34,853 nt of DNA from Candidatus Asgardarchaeum abyssi. Its GTDB lineage: Archaea > Asgardarchaeota > Asgardarchaeia > Asgardarchaeales > Asgardarchaeaceae. Both the position numbers and the translations under genes were made by a program. Of the stretch, positions 24,038-31,428 are shown piece after piece. The notes beneath the pieces are model-generated. The model was not told the origin of the DNA. It did no database searches and was given only the letters and a program-made list of their open reading frames with translations. Numbering within the stretch: position 1 is the stretch's first letter; each line of letters begins with the position of its first letter. The DNA lies in NCBI GenBank assembly GCA_040225955.1, contig JBECUL010000020.1:1-34853 (forward strand), in the 5' to 3' direction.

Positions 24038-24134
24038 TCTCTTATTTTCTTTTTCAGAAACTTTAAATATCTTTTTTATAAAATTGTTGTGGAAACATAC
24101 TTTTTATATTATGAAGCATATTGGGGGGTGTTCT

Positions 24135-24851
24135 ATGAGTTTTGATGTGAAAAGAGCTAAAACCGGAGTACCTGGAATGGACGAGCTTCTACATGGAGGA
24201 ATCCCTAGACGAAATGTGGTGTTACTCTCTGGTGGTCCTGGAACGGGAAAAACGATATTTGGACAACAATTTTTATACAAAGGCTTAGAAATGGGTGAAA
24301 ATGGAGTTTATGTTGCATTGGAAGAGCATCCCGTACAGATACGTCAAAATATGGCATTATTTGGCTGGGATGTTAGACCATTTGAAGAAGAGGATAGATT
24401 TGCAATTGTAGATGGATTTACTGGTGGTATTGGTGAAGCTGCCAAAAGAGAGCGTTATGTTGTTAGAGCTCCCGATGATGTACAATCGCTTATTGATGTT
24501 TTAAAGACCGCAATTAGGACTGTGAATGCTGAAAGGGTTGTGATAGATTCTGTAACTACACTTTATTTAACAAAACCTATTATTGCAAGAAATACGGTAC
24601 TGCAGTTGAAAAAGGTCCTTTCTGGACTAGGAACTACATCATTATTAATAAGCCAAGTTAGTGTTACAGAAAAAGGATTTGGTGGCCCTGGTGTTGAACA
24701 TGCAGCCGACGGAATTATAAGACTAGACCTAGACGAAGTAAATGGTCAGCTTGAAAGAAGCCTCATAATTTGGAAGATGAGAGGAACAGCTCATAGTATG
24801 AGACGCCATAAATTTAAAATAACTAATGAAGGTATTGTTGTAATTATTTAA
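24135..24851 (+). CDS. Single-domain KaiC-like/RecA-superfamily ATPase
   Basis: [39 protein letters not shown]. Start placed at ATG 24135 after a GGGGGTG RBS. Confidence 0.92.
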
Positions 24852-24885
24852 TTTATTCTTATATGAATAAAAGGAGGTTAGATAA

Positions 24886-25293
24886 ATGAGTGGTGAAGTG
24901 CCTCTTAAGCCTATTGGGAGAGAAGAAATACATAAGTTGGAAACCGCTCTTCTCTTAGGTACACTCTTTTCCCCTAAAGTACTAGAACTCCTAAGAAATC
25001 CAGACGAGAGATTAACATGGGTTGACTCATTAGCTGTTGCTGCTGGCGCTTTGGCTAGAGAAAAAGCTGGGATGACAATATCTCAAATAGCTGAGGATTT
25101 AGGTCGAAGTGAAGGAACTATCAGAAATCATCTTAAAGGGAAAACAAAGGCTGGAGAGCTTGTTATTGAGACATACAATAAATTTGTTAGAGAGGGCGTG
25201 AAAATAGAGATTGAAGCTTGGAGTGAAGCCCAGACTAAGCTAGATATCGTAAAACAAAAGCTCAAAGAAATACTTCAAATGCTGGAATCATAA
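24886..25293 (+). CDS. HTH regulator of the type paired with KaiC-like ATPases in archaea (COG1318-like)
   Basis: ERLTWVDSLAVAAGALAREKAGMTISQIAEDLGRSEGTIRNHLKGKTKAG; AGGAGG RBS. Confidence 0.85.
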   Translation: MSGEVPLKPIGREEIHKLETALLLGTLFSPKVLELLRNPDERLTWVDSLAVAAGALAREKAGMTISQIAEDLGRSEGTIRNHLKGKTKAGELVIETYNKFVREGVKIEIEAWSEAQTKLDIVKQKLKEILQMLES

Positions 25294-25426: not shown

Positions 25427-28258
25427 GTGGTCTACCTTCTAAAGTCGATACATCTTAAAAATTTTCAGACTCACAGAGATACGTTTATAAATTTTGATAA
25501 TAGGCCTATTCTTCTAATTACGGGAGCTAATGGAGCGGGAAAAACACTAATACTAGATGCTCTCTTATTAGCCATGGGAGGGGCTAGTAAACGAGCTAAG
25601 CAAATGGGGTTATCTTCGTTCATAGGACCTTTTGGGGGTACAGCGAAAATAAAAATTGTTCTGAATAATCCAATAATTAATAAAAGACGGCTCTTTCAGA
25701 CAAATGTTCCAAATCTCGATACCATCATAGATAAAGATCTCTTAACTATAGAAGTTGCCATTGATAAACGTGGGGCTCGTCAATATTCAATAAATGGTAG
25801 GAAAACAATAGATGGAGTACCAATAAGTGTGTATCATATACAAAAAATATTCGCAAGCGTTCATTTACACCCTTCTGATCCTTTATTTGTTACCGAACAA
25901 GGAACCATAAATTCGTTTGAATCACTTACTCCTCATAAGCGATTTGAAATTCTTTTAGAATCCTCCGAGCTGAAGGCTTATCTCGATAAATTACTTAGCA
26001 CTCAAACAGAGTTAGAAAGAGAAGAAAAAACAGTAAAACCACTACTGGCTAGATTAAAAGAGGAAGAAAGAAAACTACAAATCTTAAAGAGCGCTTACGA
26101 AGCATATAAAAAACGTCTTGAGATAGAGAAGGCTCTTAAAAGATTAGAGGTTGAGCTTTTATGGTCCGAAGTGGACGAAATTGATAAGGAGCGTGCAAAA
26201 ATACTTGAAGAGCTTAATAATAATGAACAAACTCTCTTTAACTTGCAATCAAAGATAAGAGATCTACATACTGAGGAATCGAAACTTCTTCAAAAGAAGG
26301 CAAAGTTACAGAAAAAAATAGAACAGCTTAATGAGGAGTACGATGACTTAATAAAAAATATAGAAATACTAAAAGAAGAGAAAAAAGAAGTTTTGGTGGC
26401 TCTAGCTAACTTAGATGATGAAAAAAAGACTTACGAATCAAGCGTAGATCAAATTGAATCTATAAGAGCAGAGATAATTCGAATTTCTGAGGAGATAGAT
26501 GAAATAAATAATGAGTTAAAAAATATAAAATTACAGAAAGATAATTTATCGAGAGGGCTTATATTATTAGACACAAGCATTAGTCCATATGAATACAAAC
26601 GATTAAACGAAGCTATTTCCTTTCTCGAAAAGGTGAAGGAATACCATCTGGAAGATAGAATAATTGGACCCCTAGTCTCTATGGTGCGTGTGAAAGACGA
26701 GTATTCTTCATTCTCAGATGCGATAAAGATGGCATTACGTAATTTTCTTTTTGTCTTTATTGCTATGGATAGTGAAGCATTTAAATATGCAAAAAGAATT
26801 TTTGATGAATTAGGAAGACCTAGAATCACAATAATAAGGTTTGATCTAATTTCTGAAAAGAAAAGAGCTCCTATTTTACATAATTCCATTGTTAATTGGG
26901 CTTCAAATTTAGTGGAGGGTAATCCATTTTTCATCAAGTTTCTAAAAAGTGTGGATGATACACTGATCGCTTATAATGTTGATGACCCTAATATTTTAGT
27001 CGAAATAGCTAAGCAATTTAATGCAAGAATAGTTACTCAAGATTGTAATAGCTATTTTGTTAAATACGGAGGCTTCACAAGACCTCCTAAAGTACCGACT
27101 ATAGAATTAGGTATCTCATTAGATTCTATGAACGTTAATATGTATGATATTCATAGAGCTAAAAAACAATTATCTGAAAAGGAAAAGCAGTTAGTATCAA
27201 AGAGAATTAAGTTACGAGCCAAGTTGCACACATTAAAAGAAAAGCTTGGCAGATTAGAAGCTTTTTCAAATAAAATAACCGGGCTTGATGAGCTCTCTCT
27301 GCGCAAGAGAAGCATTGAGATAGAAGAGGAACTTAAGAGTTTAAGTCAGCAAGCGGAATATCATCGACAGGAAATACTACGATTTAAGAAGGATATGGAA
27401 CTATTGGATGAAAAACATAATCTGATAAACAGACAAATAGGCGAGGTTCAGCTCAGAATAAAAAATATTACAACAAATATTAAGGAACTAAAACAAAAAC
27501 TCTCAACATTGGATAAGCAATATGAGGAAAAGTTAAGAATTGCTAAGGAAAAGGGAATTCGTCCAGAAAGTGTAAGATCCTTTGATGAAATTCGAAATGA
27601 AATGATGAAGTTAAAAGGCATGTTGGATGCCATTAAGGTAACTGTTGCAGATAAAGAGAAATACGAAAATCAAAAAAAGATGGTCAGCGATTTAAAAGCA
27701 TATCTAAGCAAAAGAAACGAACACATAAGGAACTTACGTGAAGATTTACGCTTAAGAATCGAAGAGTGGAAAAGAATATTGCTAGAAACAATATCAAAGA
27801 TACAAATCTTAATGAATTTATTATTGCGTCCAAGAATAGATGAGGTTGTATTAAAACTTACAAATTTGGAAAATCCAGAGAAAACCGAACTTATAATAAC
27901 TGCAAGAGTTGAAAAGGATGGTAAGTTTAGAAGTCTCTATGCGCTTAGTGGAGGAGAAAGAGTATTACTAGCTCAAGCATTTATACTCTCGTTACACATT
28001 TTAACTAATGCACCAATTCAAATTATTGATGAATTAACACAAAGGCTGGATGAATCATATCAGTTAGCTGCCTTTGAAATGGTCGCCAAGGCTCAGAAAC
28101 TTATGTCATCAGGCAATCCGAATAACCTTCAAGCACAGTTTATTCTAATGGCTCCAATAATAAGAAAAGAAGGACTTCCAAAATATGTAAAACATATAGT
28201 TTTCATAAAAGTAAGATCAGAGGGAGATAAATGGGTAACGGTGACAATGGAACACTAA
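25427..28258 (+). CDS. SMC-family ATPase, Smc5/Smc6-like
   Basis: LKNFQTH, Walker A GANGAGKT, Q-loop FVTEQG, coiled coils, hinge IIGPLVSMVRVKD..AIKMAL, signature LSGGER, Walker B/D-loop IIDELTQRLD, QFILMAP; GGAGG RBS at 25411. Confidence 0.9.
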   Translation: MVYLLKSIHLKNFQTHRDTFINFDNRPILLITGANGAGKTLILDALLLAMGGASKRAKQMGLSSFIGPFGGTAKIKIVLNNPIINKRRLFQTNVPNLDTIIDKDLLTIEVAIDKRGARQYSINGRKTIDGVPISVYHIQKIFASVHLHPSDPLFVTEQGTINSFESLTPHKRFEILLESSELKAYLDKLLSTQTELEREEKTVKPLLARLKEEERKLQILKSAYEAYKKRLEIEKALKRLEVELLWSEVDEIDKERAKILEELNNNEQTLFNLQSKIRDLHTEESKLLQKKAKLQKKIEQLNEEYDDLIKNIEILKEEKKEVLVALANLDDEKKTYESSVDQIESIRAEIIRISEEIDEINNELKNIKLQKDNLSRGLILLDTSISPYEYKRLNEAISFLEKVKEYHLEDRIIGPLVSMVRVKDEYSSFSDAIKMALRNFLFVFIAMDSEAFKYAKRIFDELGRPRITIIRFDLISEKKRAPILHNSIVNWASNLVEGNPFFIKFLKSVDDTLIAYNVDDPNILVEIAKQFNARIVTQDCNSYFVKYGGFTRPPKVPTIELGISLDSMNVNMYDIHRAKKQLSEKEKQLVSKRIKLRAKLHTLKEKLGRLEAFSNKITGLDELSLRKRSIEIEEELKSLSQQAEYHRQEILRFKKDMELLDEKHNLINRQIGEVQLRIKNITTNIKELKQKLSTLDKQYEEKLRIAKEKGIRPESVRSFDEIRNEMMKLKGMLDAIKVTVADKEKYENQKKMVSDLKAYLSKRNEHIRNLREDLRLRIEEWKRILLETISKIQILMNLLLRPRIDEVVLKLTNLENPEKTELIITARVEKDGKFRSLYALSGGERVLLAQAFILSLHILTNAPIQIIDELTQRLDESYQLAAFEMVAKAQKLMSSGNPNNLQAQFILMAPIIRKEGLPKYVKHIVFIKVRSEGDKWVTVTMEH

Positions 28259-29016
28259 TTGAAAAAGAAGAATTCAAGATAATTGAATCTCTGGTAACAC
28301 CAGTTCCACCAAGAGAGATAACAAGACAACTTTGGGGTATCGCCAAAAAATATGAAACTGCGATAAAAGAGAATTTAATAATCTCAATTGAAGAGGCAGA
28401 GCAAGATCGTAATATCGTTAATATGTTATTTAGGAAATATACCGATTTAAAAACAAGAATTCTTGATGCCAGAATACTTCAAAACTTTGTATCTATGCAA
28501 AGGCTCCGAGACGTCCATGTTATCATGAAGTACCTTGATAAATCAGAAATTATCAAATATATCGCGTATCAAGTAAAAAGACGAGGTACACCTATAGTAA
28601 CGTTTACTGGCTATTCATTACGTTCAACTCCACGCTTAGAAAGAAAATTAACTTCTTCTAAGGTTGAACCCAAATATGATCAAAATATTTCTATTTTTAA
28701 GGAGGAGGCAGAACGTACTCTTTTAATGTTTAATGAAGAAATAGATATGTCTTCTGTTGATAAATTGGACATAGATTCTTTAAAGAAAGAAACTCTTATG
28801 AAATTAAAACCTTATTTTGATAAACCAATAAAGATAAAAACGCTTTCACGCCTTTTATCGCATATCCAATTAAATATCTTAAGCCAAATGATTCGTGATA
28901 ATGAGCTTTTTGCATACAAGAGAGGAAAAGACTCTATTATTATATCTAAGACACCAAAATATCTATCGGAAGATAATAAATATGAAACCATTGTTATTGA
29001 AGGTGCTGAAAAATGA
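28231..29016 (+). CDS. Putative kleisin, Nse4/EID-like
   Basis: Overlaps the SMC stop. VNMLFRKYTDLKTRILDARIL fits the recalled Nse4 N-terminal pattern NxLF-x10-LDAxxL; basic linker; C-terminal winged-helix-like segment. Confidence 0.6.
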   Translation: MGNGDNGTLIEKEEFKIIESLVTPVPPREITRQLWGIAKKYETAIKENLIISIEEAEQDRNIVNMLFRKYTDLKTRILDARILQNFVSMQRLRDVHVIMKYLDKSEIIKYIAYQVKRRGTPIVTFTGYSLRSTPRLERKLTSSKVEPKYDQNISIFKEEAERTLLMFNEEIDMSSVDKLDIDSLKKETLMKLKPYFDKPIKIKTLSRLLSHIQLNILSQMIRDNELFAYKRGKDSIIISKTPKYLSEDNKYETIVIEGAEK

Positions 29017-29576
29017 GCTCTACATTTGAGAGTAAACCCGTAAAACTTGACGAAGAATTAGCGGAGTTAATAGCTGTACTTTCTTCCCGCTGGAGGGCAC
29101 TTGACGGATCTGTTCATTTTGGAGTTGAGGAGGATAGGCTAAAAAAAGCACTAGACGTAAAAAGCAGAGCTAGTTTAGAAAGAAAGTTAGAAGAAGTGCA
29201 AAAGAAGCTTCTTCCTATGGGTTTAGAAATCGTTAGATATTCATATGAGGGAAAATTCTATTATTGCATTAGAACGATATATGGCGTCCCCTCTGAACTT
29301 ACAGATGAAGAGTATGCGGTTCTTGGTGTTATAATATATCATATTGAAACAAATAAGGAACATGATTATGTTACAAAAAAGCAATTAGAAATAACTCTGG
29401 TTAATGGAAATTATCTAAATATGTATCAATTTGAACAAATTCTTCGTAATTTGGAGATGTTCGGATATATTAAGCGAAGGAGGGGAAATGTATACTATGG
29501 TTCAAGAACGTTAGTTGAATTTGATGAGGAAAGAAGGAGAGCTATTGCAGACGAGGTTAAAGCGTGGTTAGTATAA
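29013..29576 (+). CDS. Putative KITE (tandem winged-helix) subunit, Nse1/Nse3(MAGE)-like
   Basis: ATGA-coupled. LEEVQKKLLPMGLEIVR, LTDEEYAVLGVII, EQILRNLEMFGYI and YYGSRTLVEF resemble recalled Nse1/MAGE WH-A and WH-B motifs. Confidence 0.7.
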   Translation: MSSTFESKPVKLDEELAELIAVLSSRWRALDGSVHFGVEEDRLKKALDVKSRASLERKLEEVQKKLLPMGLEIVRYSYEGKFYYCIRTIYGVPSELTDEEYAVLGVIIYHIETNKEHDYVTKKQLEITLVNGNYLNMYQFEQILRNLEMFGYIKRRRGNVYYGSRTLVEFDEERRRAIADEVKAWLV

Positions 29577-30037
29577 TGAAGCTAAATATTAGAGTGTTAT
29601 ATATTGAGTGTATGGTTTGCAGCTCAAGAGTTTCTATTCGGGATGCTGAAAAATTAGAATGGCGGAAATGTAGAATCTGTGGTGGATTCATATGTCCTGA
29701 TTGTTTAGAGTTAGTTTTGCGCGAAATGAACGGAGTTTGTCCATCGTCAATTTATATGGGATTTAAACCTCACAAGATGGAATTAGATGAAATATCTGCA
29801 CAAGAAATTTTGATACTAGCTAAAGAAATATACTCCAGAGGAAGAGTGGGACCTATAATTAAAGAAGTATTCTATTCAGATCCACTAACAGTTCAGTTTG
29901 AGGCACTTACATTTAGAAAGAAAAAAGCTAAAAAAAGAGACGAGGCAGAAGTTAGAGAGGAAATTTGGCGGAGATACGGATTAGTTTTAGTTAAAAGAGC
30001 AAGGGGGAAATTCGTTACATGGGAACCAATAACATAG
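29576..30037 (+). CDS. RING-like Zn-finger protein (candidate E3)
   Basis: TAATG stop/start overlap at 29574-29578 (alternative GTG at 29564). Ligand pattern C-x2-C-x16-C-x2-C-x4-C-x2-C-x11-C-x10-H. Confidence 0.65.
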   Translation: MKLNIRVLYIECMVCSSRVSIRDAEKLEWRKCRICGGFICPDCLELVLREMNGVCPSSIYMGFKPHKMELDEISAQEILILAKEIYSRGRVGPIIKEVFYSDPLTVQFEALTFRKKKAKKRDEAEVREEIWRRYGLVLVKRARGKFVTWEPIT

Positions 30038-30534
30038 CTTTTGACAAAACAAAAGTATATCCAGTTTATATTCTCTCTAGAGTTGTTGAGGAAATAAAAG
30101 AATTTTGTACAAAGTGCATGCCAAATGAGGCGATAGGAGTTCTGCTTGGTTATAAGCTTAAATTCAATAATAAACTTTACACGAAAATTGTAGATTGGGC
30201 AACTGGATCTGCTAATATTTCTCCCTATCATGCTGAGTTTACCGAAGGAGGAATTTTGGAGTATCATCTATTTATTGAAGAGCGATATATGAACAACAAA
30301 AATAGGCCTCATGTTGTTGGAGTTTTTCATTCTCATCCTTTTGGTACCGATCCTGCATTTTCTGGTATTGACATAAGTACTTTTTCAAATCCTCTATATC
30401 TCGAGAACGGAAATATTTTCATCCTCTTAGATCCATTAATTGATGCGTTTAAAGTGTTTGTGATTGAGAAAGATGAAGGAAATTATATTTTAAGGGAAGC
30501 TGATTGGTGTGAATATTCGCCTCACATCATCTAA
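30019..30534 (+). CDS. JAMM/MPN+ metallo-isopeptidase (Rpn11/CSN5-like)
   Basis: PNEAIGVLLG (catalytic Glu), VVGVFHSHPFGTDPAFSGID, FILLDP. Confidence 0.9.
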   Translation: MGTNNIAFDKTKVYPVYILSRVVEEIKEFCTKCMPNEAIGVLLGYKLKFNNKLYTKIVDWATGSANISPYHAEFTEGGILEYHLFIEERYMNNKNRPHVVGVFHSHPFGTDPAFSGIDISTFSNPLYLENGNIFILLDPLIDAFKVFVIEKDEGNYILREADWCEYSPHII

Positions 30535-30552
30535 GGAGGAAAAAATATCACT

Positions 30553-31428
30553 ATGAGTCCTAAAAATAATTCTGGTGACGAAAAAACTTCAGTATCCTTA
30601 TATTATTTTGAGGAAGATGTCTTCGACAGAACAAGACGCTTTTTCGGCGACGACAAATTAAATATTATAAGAAGAAGTAAGGTTCTTCTTGTTGGTGCTG
30701 GCGCTGTTGGTAACGAAGTCGCTAAGAATTTGGGGCTCTTAGGAATTGGGCAACTCAATTTAGTTGATTATGATATGGTTACAAAATCTAATCTAAATAG
30801 ATGTGTTTTCTTCAGACCTCAGGATCATATGAAAAAATATAAAGTTGAGGCTTTAGCCGAGCGGTTAGGCGAAATATCTAATACTAAAGTTAAGTTTTTC
30901 ATAGGAAAAATTGAGGAGGCTCCTAACACTATTTGGGATGTCGATTTAATAGCTGTTGCTGTAGATAACAATTACGCCAGATGGTTTATTAATGCAAAAA
31001 ACCTGTCGCTGGAGAATCCACTACCTATGGTAAATGGTGCTATGGGCCGTGAATTCGTACAAGTTGATGTTCTTTTCCCTCCTTATACAGCATGTCTCAC
31101 TTGCAGTTGGAGTGAAGACTATTATAGACAAATTATACAAGGTGCAGTGTACGAGAAATGTGATAATTTTTTCATAGATACTCTTCCTAAATTTCCCGCG
31201 ATAAGTTTTGCAACATCATTAGTTGGAGCTATAATGTCTGTTGAAATCGTTAAGATTTTAGTAGGTCTCTCTAAATTTAAGAAAGATCGGAAGTGGGAAC
31301 CTAATTTTGAACCCTTAGTTGGCATGTCCATAAAGTATGATTTTGTTAAGCATAATATCTCTCTTTATAAACTAAATAAAAATCCTGATTGTGTTGAGCC
31401 GCTTTGCAGAAAAAATATTGAATATTAA
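30553..31428 (+). CDS. E1-like ubiquitin-activating enzyme (ThiF/MoeB superfamily, Uba2/Uba3-like)
   Basis: VLLVGAGAVGNEVAKNL, VDYDMVTKSNLNR, VDNNYAR..IN, PPYTACLTC, candidate catalytic Cys in YEKCDN, C-terminal KNPDCVEPLC; AAGGAGG RBS. Confidence 0.9.
   Translation: MSPKNNSGDEKTSVSLYYFEEDVFDRTRRFFGDDKLNIIRRSKVLLVGAGAVGNEVAKNLGLLGIGQLNLVDYDMVTKSNLNRCVFFRPQDHMKKYKVEALAERLGEISNTKVKFFIGKIEEAPNTIWDVDLIAVAVDNNYARWFINAKNLSLENPLPMVNGAMGREFVQVDVLFPPYTACLTCSWSEDYYRQIIQGAVYEKCDNFFIDTLPKFPAISFATSLVGAIMSVEIVKILVGLSKFKKDRKWEPNFEPLVGMSIKYDFVKHNISLYKLNKNPDCVEPLCRKNIEY

Follow-up and report, generated by a model that had tools for sequence, protein, structure and literature searches.

A conserved gene for a predicted RING-like finger protein follows the Nse1-like KITE gene of an Asgard SMC operon

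Among the SMC complexes of eukaryotes, only Smc5/6 has ubiquitin and SUMO ligases built in, which raises the question of where they came from. A locus of the archaeon Candidatus Asgardarchaeum abyssi brings this question into a prokaryote. On contig JBECUL010000020.1 (assembly GCA_040225955.1), of which we analysed positions 1 to 34,853 of the forward strand, a stretch of 34,853 nucleotides called the window here, a gene for a KITE subunit is followed directly by a gene for a small zinc-finger protein, named ZNF below. A first-pass annotation, made from the letters of the DNA, had read the two genes as a split Nse1 in its pre-fusion state. Do the two products belong to one complex, and are they related to Nse1 in both of their parts? 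We consider it fairly probable that the operon encodes an Asgard complex of the Smc5/6 type, in which a separate RING-like subunit is docked on the KITE module and serves a ubiquitin-like pathway of its own. A three-gene archaeal operon related to Smc5/6 has already been published; no paper was found on the conserved fourth, RING-like gene or on its linkage to genes for a ubiquitin-like protein (Ubl), an activating enzyme (E1), an E2-like protein and a JAB peptidase.

The KITE gene and its finger-gene neighbour

Six genes occupy positions 25427–31428 of the window in one orientation, encoding, in this order, an SMC protein, a 261-aa protein, the KITE protein, ZNF, a JAB protein and an E1. The KITE gene (29013–29576, + strand; 187 aa) ends with the stop codon TAA at 29574–29576, the final A of which is shared with the ATG at 29576–29578 that opens the finger gene (29576–30037, +; 153 aa). 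The resulting TAATG junction (29574–29578, +) is a one-base overlap between two genes in different frames; the finger gene might instead begin at a GTG at 29564. A direct read of the sequence gave the open reading frame (ORF) coordinates, the junction and the cysteine spacing of the second product just as they had first been annotated. The 187-aa ORF also carries EQILRNLEMFGYIKRRRGNVYYGSRTLVEF, which had been placed at its end; the stretch stands near the C-terminus, with 17 residues still downstream of it. The remark that the pair is one indel away from a fusion applies to any overlapping gene pair.

To describe the fold of the KITE protein, an AlphaFold model was built from a 12-sequence alignment. 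The model consisted of two winged helices, with a predicted local distance difference test score (pLDDT) of 87 and a predicted template-modelling score of 0.79. When it was searched with Foldseek, the top of the list was made up entirely of KITEs, and the significant matches were ScpB, Nse1, MukE and JetB. In VIA-align, rank 1 was taken by Nse1 (7dg2_A; Z 12.2, root-mean-square deviation (rmsd) 4.0 over 162 aa), and human NSE1 (5hvq_C) reached Z 11.7 over 159 aa. Chains of yeast Smc5/6 entries followed with Z 8.8–9.7, while the next full-length KITE from outside Smc5/6, ScpB (3w6j_C), gave Z 9.2 and JetB gave Z 8.5. The second winged helix of the model was aligned with the second winged-helix (WH-B) domains of MAGE proteins at Z of about 10 and rmsd 2.2–2.5. 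In addition, the same genome encodes a canonical ScpB on contig 15 (PF04079, E 2.3e-33), and the window protein has no PF04079 match. Judged from its predicted model, the 187-aa protein is a KITE that is structurally closest to Nse1 and not to ScpB or JetB, in agreement with its first assignment.

Sequence profiles were less informative about this protein. It had no Pfam hit above cut-off and no NCBIfam match, and its profile returned nothing useful from PDB sequences. Among 37 members of the KITE family, the Pfam scan gave SMC_Nse1 in six (best E 0.0037), MAGE in two and ScpB in one (E 0.034), all below cut-off. When five whole genomes were scanned with SMC_Nse1 (PF07574), there was a single match, with an E-value of 0.29. 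By these profile scores, the KITE protein would not be counted formally as a member of SMC_Nse1.

The relatives of the window proteins carry the labels Candidatus Asgardarchaeia, Hermodarchaeota and Promethearchaeota, all of them Asgard. In each of the 22 related loci fetched, the genes for the SMC protein, the 261-aa protein, the KITE protein and ZNF were consecutive, with the KITE gene before the finger gene on the same strand, and the same order was found in further families. From the coordinates of finger-profile and KITE-profile matches across Asgard genomes, the two genes were adjacent, on one strand and with KITE first in 57 of the 59 genomes holding both, which belong to at least eight families. 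One exception (G279) was due to a contig break; in the other (G288), a finger copy (L030, G288:C115:247-1412) lies beside a gene for an Arf/Sar-like small GTPase and not beside a KITE gene. The finger profile matched 65 of the 301 Asgard genomes searched, including 26/29 in family f4, 19/19 in f11, 10/11 in f27, 3/3 in f25 and 2/2 in f29, and gave no matches in f5 (0/76) or f8 (0/68). Strong KITE-profile matches fell in the same genomes as the finger matches, and the more distant KITE relatives of families f18 and f15 had no ZNF neighbour, which confines the pairing to a single clade of KITEs.

One locus of family f18 (L024; G037:C1:1911000-1927000 and G037:C1:1910348-1910749) has a smaller string of genes, encoding an SMC-like protein of 835 aa, a 218-aa protein and a KITE of 172 aa, after which the finger gene is absent. 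This string lies just downstream of a canonical ubiquitin cluster with a UQ_con E2, a ThiF E1, an AAA ATPase and two RING-finger proteins, one of which is fused to an SprT/M48-like domain. In four more genomes of this family, the E2 gene lies about 8 kb from the KITE gene on the same strand.

The finger protein and its predicted place in the complex

The cysteines of ZNF are arranged as C12-x2-C15-x16-C32-x2-C35-x4-C40-x2-C43-x11-C55-P, and an invariant histidine, H66, follows ten residues on. A word-indexed homologue search with ZNF returned only the window's own protein, and its orthologues were recovered through synteny; the word search had missed them because several are cut short by gene callers or are too divergent to share common words. 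Orthologues 39–65% identical stand in every related locus, as the fourth gene of the operon. Eight ligand positions (C12, C15, C32, C35, C40, C43, C55 and H66) were conserved in 26 sequences and in the distant ones, and the sole swaps were a histidine at position 2, an aspartate at position 5 (in Hermodarchaeota-type loci) and a cysteine at position 8. This is the pattern that true metal ligands would show.

The domain that contains these ligands (residues 10–72; 29603–29791, +) is probably a binuclear zinc finger of the cross-brace type. In the predicted model, residues 10–80 had a pLDDT of about 90, and a helix (41–50) stood right after the third ligand pair, C40/C43. When the finger was searched with Foldseek, RING E3 domains dominated the list (RNF4 with a TM score of 0.68 by target, Ring1B, TRIM32, RNF125, Bre1, Cbl and TRAF6), at weak E-values of 0.06–0.5 (at least 0.056). 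In a wide VIA search against representatives, almost all matches were RING, U-box or ZZ domains with Z of 4.4–5.8, values that are weak even at their maximum. Fingers of the FYVE, PHD, C1 or B-box kind were few in these fold lists, with one PHD and some ZZ domains. The ESM Atlas feature search yielded leads below 0.9 only, to Prok-RING_1/2 and B-box, and the ZNF profile found nothing useful among PDB sequences. RING is thus the best-supported fold class for the predicted finger, though unproven. The RING of Nse1 itself was aligned at Z 4.8 (7dg2_A 176–231) and 4.7 (2ct0), tied with dozens of other RINGs, and no sign of a specific kinship between the two was found.

Beyond the finger, about 80 further residues of ZNF are conserved, and these are absent from Nse1. 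They comprise a middle segment (residues 83–112, with K83, G89, G92, F99 and Y100 invariant; 29822–29911, +), predicted to be a docking site, and a C-terminal motif (residues 123–153, REEIWRxYGLVLVKRxRGKFVTWE; 29942–30034, +), which is the most conserved stretch in the distant orthologues and was modelled, at low confidence, as a helix and two strands.

Public gene calls shorten the finger protein to 101–124 aa and drop its first zinc knuckles (L004:7083-7550, L007:7648-8103, L044:5669-6191). For L004, there is no ATG, GTG or TTG before the first CxxC of the finger gene; for L007, a full-length frame runs from a GTG; and for L044, the first residue of the called protein corresponds to Met51. 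Since the gene calls lose the first zinc knuckles, the finger domain is hidden from annotation pipelines.

To place ZNF among the other products of the operon, a complex of the 261-aa protein, two KITE copies, ZNF and two zinc ions was modelled, and the interface of ZNF was scored. The interface score ipSAE was 0.81 (0.82, 0.78 and 0.81 in the runs). It fell to 0.03 and 0.01 when unrelated proteins replaced ZNF, and to 0.32 when the 261-aa chain was replaced. The partner chain had a pLDDT of at least 66, and the contacts agreed between runs in at least 70%. Of 80 solved complexes, 58 attain the ipSAE mark, as do 2 of 110 mismatched pairs; this calibration is only rough here because custom alignments were used and zinc was included.

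In the complex model, the confident contacts were made through residues 83–112 of ZNF and not through the zinc domain; the C-terminal motif likewise lay outside the confident interface. ZNF touched the first KITE copy at residues 89–93 and 171–181, the second at 14–47, and the 261-aa protein at 106–120. The contacts on the first KITE copy (RTIYGVP and EFDEERRxAI) and ZNF residues 83–100 fall on the motifs that are best conserved in the KITE and ZNF families. The model suggests that one ZNF molecule is wedged on an asymmetric KITE dimer and the kleisin, with the finger left free.

The 261-aa protein of this model (28231–29016, +) is named a putative kleisin from the position of its gene, which always lies between the SMC and KITE genes in the loci fetched and in further families; searches of Pfam, NCBIfam and PDB sequences returned no match to it, also when a 17-sequence profile was used. 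The first gene of the operon (25427–28258, +) encodes a 943-aa SMC-family ATPase with a hinge (Pfam SMC_N 5.9e-19, SMC_hinge 5.6e-7) and is syntenic in all related loci compared. Its best matches among PDB sequences were archaeal Smc (1.5e-15) and Smc6 (7e-12), and Smc2 scored similarly. A placement of this SMC in the Smc5/6 branch from such matches was rejected, as the archaeal Smc, Smc6 and Smc2 score alike and do not discriminate.

Ubiquitin-like pathway genes linked to the operon

Directly after the finger gene, the window carries a gene for a 171-aa JAB/JAMM metallopeptidase (30019–30534, +; Pfam Prok-JAB 1.6e-8) with an intact HSHP...S..D motif, and then one for a 291-aa E1-like adenylyltransferase of the ThiF family (30553–31428, +; Pfam ThiF 2.3e-36). 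JAB and E1 genes also follow the finger gene directly in L001, L004, L009, L027, L031, L044, L045 and L046, where the surrounding genes differ, and a JAB fragment follows it at a contig edge in L033 (family f29). In five of these loci (L027, L031 and L044–L046), the string goes on with a Ubl-like gene of about 104 aa and then an E2-like gene of 190–260 aa. The modifiers end in an invariant VG followed by 0–3 variable residues. For L045, the modifier ORF runs past the VG (L045:7497-8464) into sequence like the N-terminal part of the L046 E2-like protein, which is either a frameshift or a modifier–E2 fusion.

The genome of the window itself encodes such a pair on contig 13 (32351–33258; L047:1121-2097). 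There, a modifier candidate of 102 aa ends in ...RAIVG at its stop codon; two bases after this stop begins a divergent E2-like protein of 221 aa (LFHPRVSPFGSLRNICY...), and behind it lie a gene of 70 aa and a transglutaminase-like gene of 392 aa. A profile built from 13 E2-like sequences was searched against the PDB, and 22 of the 24 matches were E2 enzymes (best E 0.0033). All E2 matches were aligned on the active-site motif YP..P.I.F..HP.I..G..C, within which H120, P121, R122 and C133 (HPR...C) are invariant in the family. The Pfam models UQ_con and ubiquitin had no match in this genome, and UQ_con misses the E2-like protein; an initial conclusion that the genome has no E2 was rejected once the contig 13 pair turned up. 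The E1 and JAB of the operon are therefore not orphans, because a modifier and an E2-like protein missed by Pfam are encoded elsewhere in the genome. Surveys based on Pfam would score such genomes as devoid of both, since the UQ_con and ubiquitin models miss them. With the ESM Atlas, the modifier gave leads below 0.9 only, to "ubiquitin-like" clusters and TmoB.

A third arrangement was found in the Hermodarchaeota loci. Immediately upstream of the SMC gene, a divergent operon (L007:1297-3133, – strand; the same position in L012–L022) encodes a Ubl, an E2-like protein, a small protein, a finger paralogue of 120–130 aa that consists of the zinc domain only, and a transglutaminase-like protein. 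Three distinct gene arrangements thus link the cascade with the SMC operon, and a finger copy accompanies the E2-like gene. Canonical UQ_con E2s were present in all other finger-bearing families searched.

Further upstream in the window (24084–25293), directly before the SMC gene, lie a KaiC-like ATPase gene and a gene for a small helix-turn-helix protein; this pair is kept in the closest relative (L001) and not in more distant loci. The G+C content of the window is low, about 0.30–0.39.

Competing explanations and known systems

Taken together, these genes could work as follows. The KITE, SMC and putative kleisin proteins would form an Asgard complex related to Smc5/6, and ZNF would be its conserved fourth subunit, made from a tightly coupled but separate gene. 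ZNF would begin with a domain of two zincs, for which a cross-brace and a RING-like fold are predicted; a middle segment, predicted to wedge between two KITE copies and the kleisin, would come second, and the conserved C-terminal motif third. We infer that the exposed finger may serve as an E3-like adaptor (E3, ubiquitin ligase) of a private ubiquitin-like pathway, which would consist of the E1 and JAB of the operon together with the 102-aa modifier with its VG end and the divergent E2-like protein of contig 13. The SMC complex might then either direct the modification of nearby proteins or be modified itself. The proposed analogy is with Nse1-Nse3-Nse4 and the RING of Nse1, with the difference that the RING would be on its own chain.

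Several points weigh against this explanation. The fold matches of the finger are weak and come from a predicted model. In the Pfam scan of 26 ZNF members, models of C1_1 (12), FYVE (10), B-box (10), zf-UBP and RING all scored below cut-off and decided nothing, the best RING-type scores being those of zf-UDP (2.5e-5, in a single member), zf-RING_4 (0.029) and zf-RING_2 (0.37). The last ligand pair is atypical, with C55 and H66 spaced x10 in place of x2 or CPxC. In classical RINGs, the hydrophobic residue of C-x-[ILV]-C contacts the E2; the equivalent position of ZNF is not a conserved hydrophobic one, since its orthologues and paralogues have V, G, A or I there. In families f4, f11, f24 and f25, the JAB and E1 genes do not adjoin the operon, and the modifier profile had no sequence match to any Ubl among solved structures. 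The E1 of the operon is the only ThiF-family gene detected in its genome, which is 93% complete and has six or seven ThiS/MoaD-like genes besides a single Urm1-like gene. It may thus act on several small modifiers, and sulfur-carrier chemistry may be an additional or even its main role. Finally, the kleisin is a putative one, recognised by gene position.

Several of these points also favour an alternative that we regard as rather unlikely. It accepts ZNF as a real subunit and takes the zinc domain to be structural, DNA-binding or protein-binding, like FYVE, C1, B-box or ZZ domains, with no E3 role, while E1 and JAB would belong to a general SAMP/Urm1-type system. The sub-threshold hits to C1_1, FYVE and B-box are as frequent as those to RING, the last ligand pair and the E2-contact position suit this view, and so do the sole ThiF-family gene among many ThiS-like proteins and the four families with no JAB or E1 in the operon. 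It is opposed by the structure searches, which gave mostly RING and U-box domains and few of the FYVE or PHD kind, and by the genes themselves: the linkage of Ubl, E2-like, JAB and E1 with the SMC operon persists through three arrangements, and a finger paralogue lies inside the Ubl/E2-like operon of Hermodarchaeota.

Whether the pair is an ancestral, pre-fusion Nse1 is a narrower matter. Here the RING of Nse1 would descend from this finger and its winged helices from this KITE, the stop codon between them having been lost later; such a history is compatible with the RING-like subunit proposed above but claims more, and we think it unlikely. The order of the KITE and finger genes is that of the domains of Nse1, the best structural matches of the KITE are Nse1 proteins, the Nse1 RING can be aligned to the finger at Z 4.7–4.8, and the x2/x4/x2 ligand spacing presumably resembles that of the C4HC3 RING of Nse1. 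One locus stands in a protein cluster with a record labelled Heimdallarchaeota. Moreover, published trees put archaeal kites other than ScpB with Nse1 and Nse3 (10.1101/2024.01.07.573240).

A pre-fusion origin requires homology of the finger to the Nse1 RING, and it is only partly supported because none was shown by the analyses run. Dozens of unrelated RINGs resemble the finger at least as well as the Nse1 RING does, and the docking segment and C-terminal motif of ZNF have no place in Nse1. Neither SMC_Nse1 nor zf-RING-like matched above noise or cut-off: PF08746 (zf-RING-like) had no match in the 26 ZNF members, and genome scans with it miss the ZNF gene. Fused orthologues were not found among 53 KITE members from a profile search of 1.84 billion representatives, none of which exceeded 243 aa with one false positive aside (the only longer hit, P0060, is a multi-cystatin protein), nor in the 59 Asgard genomes, where no match lay in an ORF of fusion length and the longest had 264 aa. 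A search for longer ZNF forms with the finger profile also found none, which is weak evidence. Junctions in relatives are tight and variable, with overlaps of 1 or 4 nt or gaps of 1 to about 27 nt, and none is a single open frame. The pair is also not found in the large Asgard families f5 and f8 among the genomes searched. Across many lineages the two genes are stably split, rather than in a transient state one indel away from fusion, and the split is therefore not an accident of this genome; an assembly error at the junction is unlikely because the split recurs in dozens of independent assemblies.

Of the first reading of the pair as a split Nse1, then, the gene order and the likeness of the KITE hold up, and a KITE–finger complex (ipSAE 0.81, docked via the middle segment) is predicted; homology of the finger to the Nse1 RING was not shown, no fused form was found, and the split is not transient. 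Its second product, called a RING gene, is predicted to have mainly RING/U-box likeness, weakly so (Z below 6) and with no specific link to Nse1. The outcomes that the first annotation had named as refuting it did not arise: the KITE groups with neither ScpB nor JetB, no clear FYVE, PHD or B-box character was seen in the finger, and an interaction with the KITE is predicted.

An accessory, mobile SMC-type defence system, akin to Wadjet or Lamassu and joined to a Ubl module like those of Bil or CBASS, would explain the likeness to Smc5/6 by a shared function against foreign DNA and not by direct ancestry. The patchy spread among Asgard archaea (65/301 genomes) would fit such a system, as would one locus (L045) that is flanked by a bacterial DNA_pol3_delta gene and comes from a metagenome-assembled genome with the label Planctomycetota. 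PADLOC returned generic matches only, in which JAB and E1 resemble the CBASS models Cap3 and Cap2 and the SMC matches LmuB and JetC, whereas KITE, the kleisin candidate, ZNF, Ubl and E2-like proteins match nothing. With no JetD-like nuclease gene seen in the block, and with nearly universal, single-copy presence in the families that have the pair (f4, f11 and f27 above all), we find this explanation distinctly unlikely. That the locus is an ordinary Smc-ScpA-ScpB operon with an unrelated small gene beside it by chance is barely conceivable and already contradicted: ScpB structures do appear among the fold matches of the KITE, but the canonical ScpB is on another contig, the KITE has no PF04079 match, the adjacency holds in 57/59 genomes of at least eight families, and KITE–ZNF binding is predicted.

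The explanation by a docked, RING-like fourth subunit thus bears on where the ligases of Smc5/6 come from. In its boldest form, a RING-like subunit on a KITE/kleisin module, with its own E1, E2, JAB and modifier, would predate eukaryotes, and Nse1 would have arisen by a later fusion of KITE and finger. We regard this extension as improbable; if it were true, the ligase arm of eukaryotic Smc5/6 would be older than eukaryotes, and the published view that the Nse1 RING first appeared in eukaryotes would have to be revised. A RING-like gene next to an Nse1-like KITE gene and a complete Ubl cascade makes the question of origin testable in a prokaryotic system of about eight genes, and the Asgard gene set offers a simple model for the coupling of an SMC complex to protein tagging.

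Compared with eukaryotic Nse1 in the Nse1-Nse3-Nse4 module of Smc5/6, the Asgard pair is alike in its KITE fold, in a predicted RING-like finger at the KITE and kleisin, in the order of KITE and finger, and in a probable link to a Ubl pathway. It differs in that the finger belongs to a distinct protein of 153 aa, which also has a docking segment and a C-terminal motif, that a single KITE gene, presumably giving a homodimer, stands in place of the Nse1/Nse3 pair, and that neither PF07574 nor PF08746 is matched. The ligand set of the finger is C4-(C/D)-C-C-H with a distant last ligand. Further differences from the eukaryotic pathway are the VG end of the modifier and a divergent E2 that Pfam UQ_con misses.

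The bacterial proteins ScpB, MukE and JetB share with the Asgard KITE the tandem winged-helix fold and the position of the gene after those for SMC and kleisin, and we know of no zinc-finger partner of any of them. The KITE differs from ScpB and JetB in its lower Z to both (8.5–9.2, against 12.2 to Nse1), in having no PF04079 match, and in a genome that has its own ScpB. Among archaea, a second operon related to Smc5/6, with genes for SMC, kleisin and an Nse1/3-like kite, has been described in TACK and Asgard lineages besides the canonical SMC-ScpAB (PMC8665677; 10.1101/2024.01.07.573240), and the RING of Nse1 is described as absent from archaeal kites and called a eukaryotic innovation in the latest evolutionary study (van Hooff et al., bioRxiv 10.1101/2024.01.07.573240). 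The published operons (Yoshinaga and Inagaki 2021; van Hooff et al.) have three genes; here there is a fourth, RING-like one. Neither the fourth gene nor the linkage to Ubl, E1, E2-like and JAB genes is mentioned in the searched text of PMC8665677 and 10.1101/2024.01.07.573240, and full-text literature searches found no paper on either.

Compact sets of conjugation genes occur elsewhere in prokaryotes, as the E1, E2-like, JAB and Gly-ended modifier genes and the small RING-like protein of the Asgard loci recall. The ubiquitin operon of the Caldiarchaeum type includes a small RING protein, and the bacterial Bil and CBASS Cap2/Cap3 systems are operons of E1, E2, JAB and Ubl. Unlike the members of these operons, the Asgard E2-like protein and modifier match no Pfam or PADLOC family. 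The Asgard set also differs from them in that it is wired to an SMC complex, of which its RING-like protein is predicted to be a stoichiometric subunit.

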